Origin: Thermoplasmatota archaeon
Lineage (GTDB): Archaea; Thermoplasmatota; Penumbrarchaeia; Penumbrarchaeales; Penumbrarchaeaceae
Length of the DNA: 64,000 nucleotides
Assembly: GCA_029762535.1 (NCBI GenBank)
Contig: JARVGK010000002.1
Span: 32,001-96,000, forward strand
Direction: 5' to 3'
Positions within the stretch are counted from its first letter, which is position 1; every line of letters begins with the position of its first letter. Shown in pieces: positions 13,494 through 16,121 of the stretch. The position numbers and the translations under genes are program-made. The notes under the pieces are model-generated. The model was not told the DNA's origin. It saw nothing but the letters and a program-made list of their open reading frames with translations, and made no database searches.

Positions 13494-16121
13494 TTAATCA
13501 ACTCCATAGTCATCCCAATTATCCATATAATAGTAGGAAATTATAATATTGCCAAAATCGATTAATGTAGAACTCCACATTAAAACTGAAAACCATTGAA
13601 ATGCAACTGAATTTAAAATATTTGGAATAATATTTAATATCGTAGCACCCCATGCATTATAAATTGAATATCTTCTATCTGAATTACGTAATTCTTCATT
13701 AGGAACTGATGATCGGCCATCAACATAAACATCAAAGAATTCTGCAATGATTGTGAAATCACCTGCATAGAAATATGACATTGATTGAAGATCTAATAAA
13801 AATGAACATAATGATAATATACTTCCTAACATATATATCATTTGAACTATAAAAATAGGCAATTTTTCAAATAAAGAAGGCACCGCATATCCAAGTGACA
13901 ATAAGCCGATAACTAAGAAATTTGATAACAATACTATCAAATCACCTAGTAAACTGAATATTCCTAATAAAAACCACCATTCATTCCACGATAAACCTGC
14001 AACACCAGTTTCATCCCCCCATAGTTCTTCGATTTTTTGTGGGTCATTTATCATTTCCAACTCATTAATTAAAACTTTTTCTGCTATTTCAAACTCCCGC
14101 TGCAATTGATTTAAGAGATTGTTGTAATTAATTGGATTGATTATTAACTTTTTTAAGGTATTTAATATATTACATAATGTTTCAATTACATTGTTATTAT
14201 AATGGTTCAAATCAGAGAAATCAAATGAATATATTATACTTATAACATTATTAAGTGTAACTTTATCTTTATCCACATCTATATTATTCCAAATTAAATA
14301 ATAATATATACAAGATTCTAAAACCTTTAAGACTTCTTCAATTATTATTGGTAAGAAATCAATTATTGGGGAAATTATAATACTAATATAATATAAATAT
14401 TTAAATAATTGTGAAATAAATGGATTCTCTTGCAATGTGTCTATAACTGACTTGGAAATTGATAGAGTATAATTTAAATTATTGAGCAATGTGTTAATAA
14501 CTTCAATATAAATCTGGATTACCTTAGATAATATTGGTAGTATAATAATGGCTAGTTTTACTAATTCTCCAATTATTTTCTCTATTAATATTTCAGAAAT
14601 ACTACTTACTCGCTCATATTTAAATCCTATATTCCCATTTTCATCCTCAGCAGTTATGTTAACTTCAAAGCTGTTAAACAAGGACCTCACTGCTTGTCTC
14701 GCATCCAATGTGAAATTAAATTCCTTGTTGGTAACTTCTGTAGAACATCCACAGTAGATTTTCTCATCACCAACTCCTCCGAGATGGACGTTGATCCAAT
14801 TGATTCCGAATATATCTGCGGCACTGATCTTGATCTTGACCTGATATTCCACAACGATCTTCAGATTCCATAAAGGTCCACTTGCTTCTGTGACCAATTC
14901 ATAATCTGCATCGAAATCGGTAAATGTAGGTGGTTGGCCATCTATCCCTGTTGGTGAACTTCCATATTCGTAATCTATTTCATCCTTATCGTTGATACCG
15001 TCTCCATCCGTGTCTGCTTTATTGGGATCCGTTCCGTTCTCGAATTCTCCTCCGTCATTGATGCCATCTTCATCATAATCAGATATAAGAGGATCAGAAT
15101 ATACTTGGTATTGATCTATTATCTCGTATGTATTTTCGTAGATTATGAGTACAGTCCATCTGTCAAGTTCCATTTTATCCGAAAGTCCATCTCCATCCGT
15201 ATCTGCATTTATAGCTGATGTTTCGTCTCCATCTCTTATTCCATTTCCGTTCAGATCCTCTTCGTTATCGGGGATCCCATCCCCGTCTGAATCCTTTGAG
15301 AGTGGATTGTATCCCCATTGGATTTCCGCAGAATCATTGAATCCGTCACTGTCAGTATCGTTAGAATTTGGGTTTGTTTCGGTCCAAACTTCATTATTTG
15401 AATATATTCCGTCTCCATTGTCTCCGTCTATTCTTCCATTCCTATTACGATCTTCTCCGGTAACCTGTTCCGGAGATCGCGGAGATCGCGGATCGATATA
15501 TGGACTTCTTGTAACATATTTATAATAGAACTGAGACAGATATTCCAATATTATCGCGATCTTTGCAAGATCTATTCCATCTTTTATTGTGTCGTTATCC
15601 ATGGCGCGAAGCGCCGGGGACGCGGAAAACCCTCTGCACCGCAAGATGGATCGGGTTTTTCGAACGTCAGTATCCTCATTGTACGGATCCGTCGTGCAAT
15701 GATCAAGATATGGGAAGGGACTTCCCATGTCGAGAAAATCTTTGATTTTCTCAAGATCAGGAACGAAATAACCACGGGAGAGATCGGTATCCACGGACTC
15801 AGATCCAGGCTTGTAACCCAGTTCCAGACCGTCATATAGGCCATCATCCTGGAAGCGAATGCTTCCGGGATGTGGAAAATCTATGATTTTCCGAACATTA
15901 TCCGAGTCCGGACCAGGACGAGAGACAAAAGGCAATACTCTGTCATAACGAGACATGGTCCGATAAAACAGTAAGATTACATTGACGTTGAAAATCCGAA
16001 GGATTTTTATGCCGTCAGGATCCACTGCGTTGATCATTCCGTCTTCGTCATGGTCCATCCACCATTTATTATCACCGATGGACTCGTTATAATCCCTAAC
16101 GCCATCGTCATCGCTGTCCAT
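13494..16121 (-). CDS. DxDxDG-repeat protein with variable TM C-terminus, module 3; 5'-truncated, with five in-frame insertions
   Basis: Repeat-coding frame continues upstream (GDTNQNGRWDKGEKWQETSP) to about 16260, then a stop with no start codon. Insertions break the D-rich repeats. Confidence 0.75.
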   Translation of the reverse strand: MDSDDDGVRDYNESIGDNKWWMDHDEDGMINAVDPDGIKILRIFNVNVILLFYRTMSRYDRVLPFVSRPGPDSDNVRKIIDFPHPGSIRFQDDGLYDGLELGYKPGSESVDTDLSRGYFVPDLEKIKDFLDMGSPFPYLDHCTTDPYNEDTDVRKTRSILRCRGFSASPALRAMDNDTIKDGIDLAKIAIILEYLSQFYYKYVTRSPYIDPRSPRSPEQVTGEDRNRNGRIDGDNGDGIYSNNEVWTETNPNSNDTDSDGFNDSAEIQWGYNPLSKDSDGDGIPDNEEDLNGNGIRDGDETSAINADTDGDGLSDKMELDRWTVLIIYENTYEIIDQYQVYSDPLISDYDEDGINDGGEFENGTDPNKADTDGDGINDKDEIDYEYGSSPTGIDGQPPTFTDFDADYELVTEASGPLWNLKIVVEYQVKIKISAADIFGINWINVHLGGVGDEKIYCGCSTEVTNKEFNFTLDARQAVRSLFNSFEVNITAEDENGNIGFKYERVSSISEILIEKIIGELVKLAIIILPILSKVIQIYIEVINTLLNNLNYTLSISKSVIDTLQENPFISQLFKYLYYISIIISPIIDFLPIIIEEVLKVLESCIYYYLIWNNIDVDKDKVTLNNVISIIYSFDFSDLNHYNNNVIETLCNILNTLKKLIINPINYNNLLNQLQREFEIAEKVLINELEMINDPQKIEELWGDETGVAGLSWNEWWFLLGIFSLLGDLIVLLSNFLVIGLLSLGYAVPSLFEKLPIFIVQMIYMLGSILSLCSFLLDLQSMSYFYAGDFTIIAEFFDVYVDGRSSVPNEELRNSDRRYSIYNAWGATILNIIPNILNSVAFQWFSVLMWSSTLIDFGNIIISYYYMDNWDDYGVD

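Follow-up and report, generated by a model that had tools for sequence, protein, structure and literature searches.

Five in-frame hairpin insertions interrupt one gene of the window (the whole 64,000-nt stretch of archaeal DNA analysed here), and they are polymorphic insertions at the DNA level. On balance, we believe that they are copies of a mobile two-hairpin DNA module that is read through as protein and kept only in frame, in the homology arm of an orphan cassette. The inserts share one grammar and one codon phase, conserve structure over amino acids, are filtered by reading frame and form no bulge-helix-bulge (BHB) motif.

All five lie, as a sequence-only reading of the window had claimed, in one open minus-strand frame (13494-16310, 938 codons, first ATG at 16121). 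The insert-bearing cassette is the first of three in tandem, which have a common repeat region and divergent membrane-helix tails, with small genes behind each of the three.

13494..16310, minus strand: N-terminally truncated orphan cassette, open frame of 938 codons, with an arm homologous to the parent gene from ~16247
10135..12156, minus strand: sister orphan cassette 2, which begins at the hot-spot codon (that of the 69-nt insert) and has no modules
6241..8946, minus strand: sister orphan cassette 1, which also begins at the hot-spot codon and has no modules
13243..13491, minus strand: small hydrophobic gene directly behind the insert-bearing cassette, no Pfam match

After its first ATG the cassette runs through the shared TSP3-like Ca-binding repeats into a variable membrane-helix tail, for which we obtained no Pfam match and no usable Atlas match. 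Over the first 100 aa, identity to the window cassette is 54-89%; past residue 300 it is down to ~20%. Parents in relatives are 2579 aa (G035) and at least 6013 aa (G005) long; a search for related loci gave no matches apart from the G035 parent and generic TSP3 proteins, and neither the parent's directly upstream region nor a parent N-terminus beside the cassette was found in the window assembly. A metagenome allele (run X6) runs on past 16247 as parent-type coding DNA, truncation points vary between genomes, and the 42 parent-homologous codons upstream of the first ATG include no start codon. Truncated copies, an arm shared with a full-length parent, divergent C-termini and small downstream genes together make the layout known for orphan cassettes in polymorphic toxin systems (PMC3482391). 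As in those systems, a giant parent with a conserved repeat stalk and a variable C-terminus is accompanied by spare tails, each with a small gene; the tails here, however, are membrane helices, and that source, as far as we read it, mentions no hairpin modules in a homology arm. By analogy, the cassette tails may have toxin/immunity functions, and by position only the gene at 13243..13491 is immunity-like.

A single grammar gives the inserts the coordinates below, all at codon phase 2. R1 is a covariance model built from 13 tRNA-linked copies of the module only, and its E-values are rough, as the calibration was short.

15907..16014, minus strand: 108-nt two-hairpin module, following the GA of an Asp codon (DPD)
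15847..15897, minus strand: 51-nt module, the most canonical family member and the top R1 match in the window (E 2.6e-9)
15709..15756, minus strand: 48-nt module, R1 match (E 3e-4)
15598..15666, minus strand: 69-nt module at the hot-spot codon (DTD), R1 match (E 2e-4)
15454..15570, minus strand: 117-nt module with a long first hairpin, fitted to the grammar by hand, no R1 match
16278..16298, minus strand: hairpin at the truncation point, with indel variation between strains
16569-16628 and 16709-16783, minus strand: two further module copies in a non-coding hairpin array upstream of the cassette (R1 E 0.016 and 1e-4)

The hairpin at 16278..16298 appears to correspond to the latter half of a module whose end is GA, and the two upstream copies are a possible local source of the inserts. 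Within the gene, insertion was after GA (once AA) and always at codon phase 2. The lengths of 117, 69, 48, 51 and 108 nt, each a multiple of three and stop-free, agreed with the earlier reading (joint probability for all five ~3e-5 under shuffles), and removal of the inserts gave back regular TSP3-like Ca-binding repeats, as had been stated. Each hairpin-rich insert proved to be two adjacent hairpins, with fold z-scores of -1 to -8 against dinucleotide shuffles (51-mer -8.0, 48-mer -6.1, 69-mer weakest) compared to -2.6 to +2.4 for insert-free control coding DNA. Microhomologies of 2-7 nt had been read at the boundaries; in those earlier registers the exact values were 3, 3, 7, 0 and 3 nt for the 117-, 69-, 48-, 51- and 108-mer. 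The 69-mer is best set at 15598-15666 with a 2-nt GA repeat, in agreement with a DNA joint from run X3. Single-sequence AlphaFold modelling of the insert-bearing region gave an uninformative model (pLDDT 33).

Insert-free alleles, which the earlier reading had proposed to look for in DNA, were found on contigs from three independent metagenome studies that join across the 69-nt, the 48-nt and the 51- plus 108-nt inserts. The full-length G035 ortholog lacks all five, and in it the absence of the four inserts formerly inferred from the repeat consensus was seen directly; the 117-nt insert is missing from the two sister cassettes, as reported, and from G035 too. Because the sister cassettes yield an identical joint, we left the 117-nt skip seen in metagenome contigs (23-nt side) out of the independent evidence. 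Four inserts are present or absent among related metagenome DNA contigs, in subsets that differ between contigs. A 778-nt contig (run X2) lacks only the 69-mer and keeps the other four; the 108-mer is absent from G035, G005 and runs X3, X5 and X6, and the 48-mer from contigs of runs X3 and X6. An exact 69-nt skip occurred in one run. Most insert-free alleles differ at neighbouring codons from the perfect excision product and therefore resemble never-invaded or converted alleles. The G005 parent lacks both inserts that its contig covers, and R1 gave no match inside the full-length parents of G035 and G005. Full-length orthologs thus lack the segments rather than carrying them as conserved protein sequence.

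The same codons are occupied in other genera. Three of the window's insert sites carry modules in G015 and in the related L037, with lengths of 51, 51 and 54 nt; a homologous 51-nt module occupies the 51-mer site, and another, with compensatory stem changes, the 48-mer site. The hot-spot codon holds different modules in four other genera, of 54 (G015), 96 (G003), 90 (G002) and 45 nt (G001), the 96-nt insert being two modules in tandem. Sister cassettes 1 and 2 begin within a few codons of this position, as do at least eight more cassette proteins. Overall, 11 of 11 coding inserts are multiples of three and 10 of 11 are stop-free; the 90-nt insert of G002 contains an in-frame TAG. That insert (L016:12373-12460) can also be parsed as 32- and 58-nt modules, each out of frame, whose sum is a multiple of three. 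Four of the five insert carriers are truncated cassettes, and the G002 carrier runs off its contig. Between G015 and L037 there are six changes within inserts, all in loops, linker or wobble-repairing positions and five of them non-synonymous, which indicates conservation of the fold but not of the peptide. The arm residues flanking these inserts decay, with non-conservative changes.

A genome search for the shared stem, also proposed earlier, returned 26 copies of AAAATC..GATTTT compared to 0-3 for control patterns, nearly all outside genes and most within ~250 nt of tRNA genes. At these tRNA loci, a two-hairpin module splits a direct copy of a tRNA end, usually in the T-loop, beside an inverted copy. 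The family grammar is a GA core, two bases, a 2-nt bulge (mostly TT), a stem-loop, a central TC, a second hairpin and GA, and the central segment pairs with both ends. Covariation in R1 is strong, with two-sided changes in 12 of the 16 pairs (0 of 500 shuffles). The top five R1 matches in the 64-kb window include four of the five inserts, on the same strand; three of the insert matches end exactly at the insert junction, and two of the three inserts of G015 and L037 are recovered. The match to the 108-mer (E 4e-4) covers the first two thirds of the insert, whose hairpin 1 and adjoining bases resemble a tRNA-Val/Pro-linked subtype, with a 32-nt match to C7/C44 repeats (E 9e-7). By this model, four of the five inserts belong to the tRNA-linked module family. 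Family matches were found in 19 of 21 genomes of the Thermoplasmatota family, compared to two weak matches in 13 genomes outside it, and a tRNA was nearby at 22 of the 26 relative loci checked. Protein-level matches assign the lineage to Thermoplasmatota. The reading frame of the coding inserts reflects selection and is no inherent property of the module: tRNA-linked copies measure 65-75 nt, and 1 of 14 would be a multiple of three and stop-free at phase 2, versus 10 of 11 coding inserts.

The E. coli tyrT/RtT repeats and the att scars of integrative elements that target tRNA T-loops are known tRNA-linked repeats. They have in common with the tRNA-linked modules tandem 130-170 bp units that end in the neighbouring tRNA's end, and a T-loop junction; here, however, each copy has an inverted partner and is interrupted by a two-hairpin module, which also occurs in a protein gene. 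Our literature searches, partial in coverage, found no paper on these modules and none on in-frame modules at recurrent codons of toxin-like cassettes. Linking hairpin arrays beside tRNAs across an archaeal family with in-frame inserts at recurrent codons of polymorphic-toxin-like cassettes is what gives these modules their wider interest.

Several further arrays were observed in the window's genome (G000). Module arrays away from tRNAs lie at window 16330-16900 and at G000 C31:5200-5700, C31:15800-15870, C61:1-330 and the end of C4; GGGGCCCC palindromes occur in two of them, in the vicinity of toxin-antitoxin and AlbA gene islands. At C69:78800-79200 (L097), the intact tRNA-Leu gene is preceded by tandem 171-bp units containing its 5' part, which the module interrupts in the D-loop. 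Genome-wide tRNA calling in G000 called no tRNA-Asp or tRNA-Lys(CTT), and several tRNA arrays lie at contig ends, so the repeats may break assembly there.

G.U pairs were counted on both strands of the modules, as raw numbers unadjusted for base composition. Coding copies had 8 on the gene-sense strand versus 20 on the antisense strand, and tRNA-linked copies 10 versus 21, with the tRNA-sense strand favoured. The same bias in both sets indicates that one module strand folds whichever strand is transcribed, which is more readily explained by a fold at the DNA level than by a splice substrate.

As to what the modules are, the sequence-only reading had offered coding palindromic insertions, like the Rickettsia palindromic elements (RPEs), that target Asp-rich repeats. 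The first part is upheld, in that the inserts are DNA-level, polymorphic, members of a repeat family and frame-filtered. The second is too broad, since R1 found no match in 18 other DxDxDG-rich ORFs of the window genome; the target is therefore the duplicated arm and not Asp-rich DNA generally. Generic targeting of Asp-rich repeats was rejected on this ground; the modules concentrate in the orphan cassette arm and in tRNA-end copies. RPEs, reviewed as coding palindromic repeats of Rickettsia (PMC10969869), resemble the modules in being small palindromic repeats that occur between genes and in frame in coding sequences, where they are read as extra peptide, and the modules are likewise a multi-copy palindromic family with both intergenic and in-frame coding copies. 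RPEs differ in being ~150 bp long, with a conserved peptide, in many unrelated housekeeping genes. The modules are 45-117 nt long and conserve structure, not peptide; they have a two-hairpin core grammar and tRNA-end copies, their allele changes are mostly non-synonymous, and coding copies were seen only in this cassette family, in one arm and at recurrent codons. The modules thus act like an RPE-type coding palindrome, yet lack the conserved peptide of RPEs.

A mechanism along the following lines would account for the inserts. The element would be a small mobile module of two back-to-back hairpins, the linear form of a hairpin-capped single-stranded DNA circle opened at a 2-nt GA/TC core. Its usual landing site in this Thermoplasmatota family would be the loops of duplicated tRNA ends, and it would have landed repeatedly in an orphan cassette that corresponds to the C-terminus of a giant Ca-binding surface protein, within the cassette's 5' homology arm, where GA cores loosely resemble its T-loop target. 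The inserts would stay in the RNA and be translated as 15-39 extra residues, either from the orphan's own ATG or after recombination into the parent gene. Out-of-frame copies would be purged, and only stop-free copies whose length is a multiple of three would persist. The circular single-stranded intermediate, a site-specific recombinase or nickase as mover and read-through in vivo are the parts of this mechanism that we infer. The precise GA-core junction, the preferred folded strand, the strain polymorphism and non-coding controls free of frame filtering make a mobilising mechanism testable. If the modules are only passengers, they still provide a clean archaeal case of coding palindromic insertion.

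Several observations sit less well with a mobile module. Whereas RPEs seek out loops, the inserts fall inside conserved DxDxDG Ca-binding motifs and break them up; 18 other Asp-rich ORFs are module-free, which targeting by simple sequence leaves unexplained; and R1 missed the 117-mer. The G002 insert has its in-frame TAG, and a search of the genomes, which are incomplete, found no PylRS. With no start codon in the 42 homologous codons before the first ATG, translation of the orphan is a prediction. Nor did we find a mobilising enzyme: 24 genomes of the family, of which 8 have a completeness of at least 90%, yielded no Y1 HUH transposase, and a search for reverse transcriptase was likewise negative, the genomes being incomplete. 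Of two tyrosine recombinases present, neither is tied to modules; a 266-aa Xer/IntI-like recombinase ~53 kb away on the contig scores below both cut-offs and stands beside a different AAC..GTT array. REP/REPIN elements with TnpA-REP and non-autonomous IS200/IS605 derivatives have paired hairpins, a dinucleotide junction, GNA-type triloops and no long target duplication. The modules share all of these features, but they are strongly tRNA-linked and the 24 genomes contain no Y1 transposase. A classical MITE was rejected: there are no terminal inverted repeats (the ends pair with the central segment), and only the 2-nt core is repeated. The modules fail the defining tests for BHB introns, attC sites, REP/IS200 elements and MITEs.

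The modules might instead be working folded single-stranded DNA recombination sites, or nick and gene-conversion triggers, of cassette shuffling, with the same machinery rearranging tRNA ends; we regard this as a tentative possibility. C-terminal tails would then be swapped onto the parent at the module codons, and the sites would have to be in frame because they remain in the fused gene. Consistent with this, the codon that holds five different modules in five genera is, to within a few codons, the place where sister cassettes 1 and 2 and at least eight other cassette proteins have their 5' end, and the modules were seen in duplicated parts of genes, namely tRNA ends and the cassette arm, but are absent from other Asp-rich genes. 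Structure is kept in G015 and L037 while the flanking arm residues decay. Arm variants are common to orphan-type and other alleles, a pattern suggestive of gene conversion within this region. The modules are also reminiscent of attC sites, which, with integron cassettes, occur in archaea too (bioRxiv 10.1101/2022.02.06.479319), in that they prefer one folded strand and have a bulge at a distance of four bases from the core. Like attC sites (bioRxiv 10.1101/2022.02.06.479319), the modules are the linear form of a circle, with a central segment that pairs both ends, one folded strand and extrahelical bases near the core. They differ from attC in the 2-nt GA/TC core, a bulge on the opened strand and the lack of gene cargo and of a linked IntI or other linked recombinase. 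The RYYYAAC...GTTRRRY boxes (attC R-boxes) are absent from module alignment A2 and the parsed inserts. Further against working sites, both full-length parents are without modules, no module-bearing parent-type allele was seen, and cassettes that begin at the hot spot have a different upstream element. A more general form of the idea, a lineage-wide folded single-stranded DNA recombination system with a 2-nt GA/TC core that acts on duplicated gene pieces, builds the hairpin arrays at tRNA ends and both marks and drives tail swapping at sites translated in frame, seems to us possible but rather unlikely. If the modules are recombination sites, they would provide a site-specific route to C-terminal swapping in archaea.

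The inserts might also be spliced out of the RNA as non-canonical introns, or skipped by bypassing ribosomes; either would restore the Ca-binding repeats, and we consider this improbable. Excision does give back the repeat text exactly, the residues interrupted are the most conserved of the motif, an in-frame stop occurs in the insert of one relative, the 108- and 48-mers are each bordered by matching codons, and the genome has a splicing endonuclease gene. However, the tiny mRNA introns or skipped segments suggested earlier were not supported when the junctions were folded, as had been proposed: no BHB formed in any of the 11 inserts in registers -9 to +9, the best in-register junctions having a 4-bp helix but at most two of four outer pairs, and G.T wobbles favour the strand opposite the mRNA. 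Precise excision would require neither lengths in multiples of three nor stop-free inserts. The EndA gene (C19, 348-aa frame, two PF01974 domains) presumably encodes the homodimeric type that requires a strict BHB. For bypassing, take-off and landing codons are identical in two of the five inserts and synonymous in one, and the next codons are ordinary sense codons, so neither a stop nor a rare codon follows the take-off codon; the flanking codon matches are a consequence of having a GA core at phase 2. Rfam gave 0 matches at E<=1 in window 1-20000. Known archaeal mRNA introns (cbf5) depend on a BHB and are likewise short structured inserts in an Asp codon, with EndA present (PMC2738675). The inserts differ in that they lack a BHB, their ends pair with the central segment and not with each other, the favoured fold is antisense, and they are present or absent at the DNA level and frame-filtered. 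They are probably not a new class of archaeal mRNA intron.

It is quite unlikely that the arm is the decaying remnant of a full-length gene, which gained in-frame inserts while expressed and later lost its 5' part, leaving the inserts inert. No parent N-terminus is assembled beside the cassette, truncation points differ between genomes, and the non-conservative flank changes in G015 and L037 and the stop in G002 would suit such decay. Yet neither of the two full-length genes carries modules, the hairpins are still paired between alleles, and strain differences in the window's arm are mostly synonymous. Assembly artefacts or ordinary conserved protein loops, for which the only point is that the source is a metagenome-assembled genome, are ruled out for practical purposes by the same inserts on independent metagenome contigs, the different modules at the same codons in other genera and the insert-free full-length orthologs.

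Other repeats and genes were observed around the cassettes. Two further conserved structured repeat families flank them (5479-5698, 9485-9694 and 12470-12682; 8775-8930, 12165-12320 and ~4100-4135). In several genomes, one flanking family (GCCGAGCAGG..., which has GCGAAGC mini-hairpins) is located upstream of cassettes and often shares an open frame with them; it has no Rfam match. Inside the inter-cassette repeats, 5128-5454 and 9125-9460 (plus strand) are two copies of a small nuclease-like ORF of 108-111 aa with an upstream hairpin, a candidate mover; the one copy searched gave no Pfam or NCBIfam match. In both the window genome and G015, a Zn-ribbon/HTH/nuclease-like protein with weak IS1-type N-terminal matches is encoded near the insert-bearing cassette (21591-22643, minus strand; L014:1827-2756). 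Asp-repeat proteins whose tails are metallopeptidase-like form a second parent-plus-orphan system at G000 C40:13379-22318 (L046), where the parent frame is broken at ~C40:20844. At 45290-56300 and G000 C25:100855-101655, a separate branched AAC..GTT repeat array between co-oriented genes, upstream of the Xer/IntI-like recombinase, is integron-like. The minus-strand gene at 23351-24175 may be a heliorhodopsin gene.
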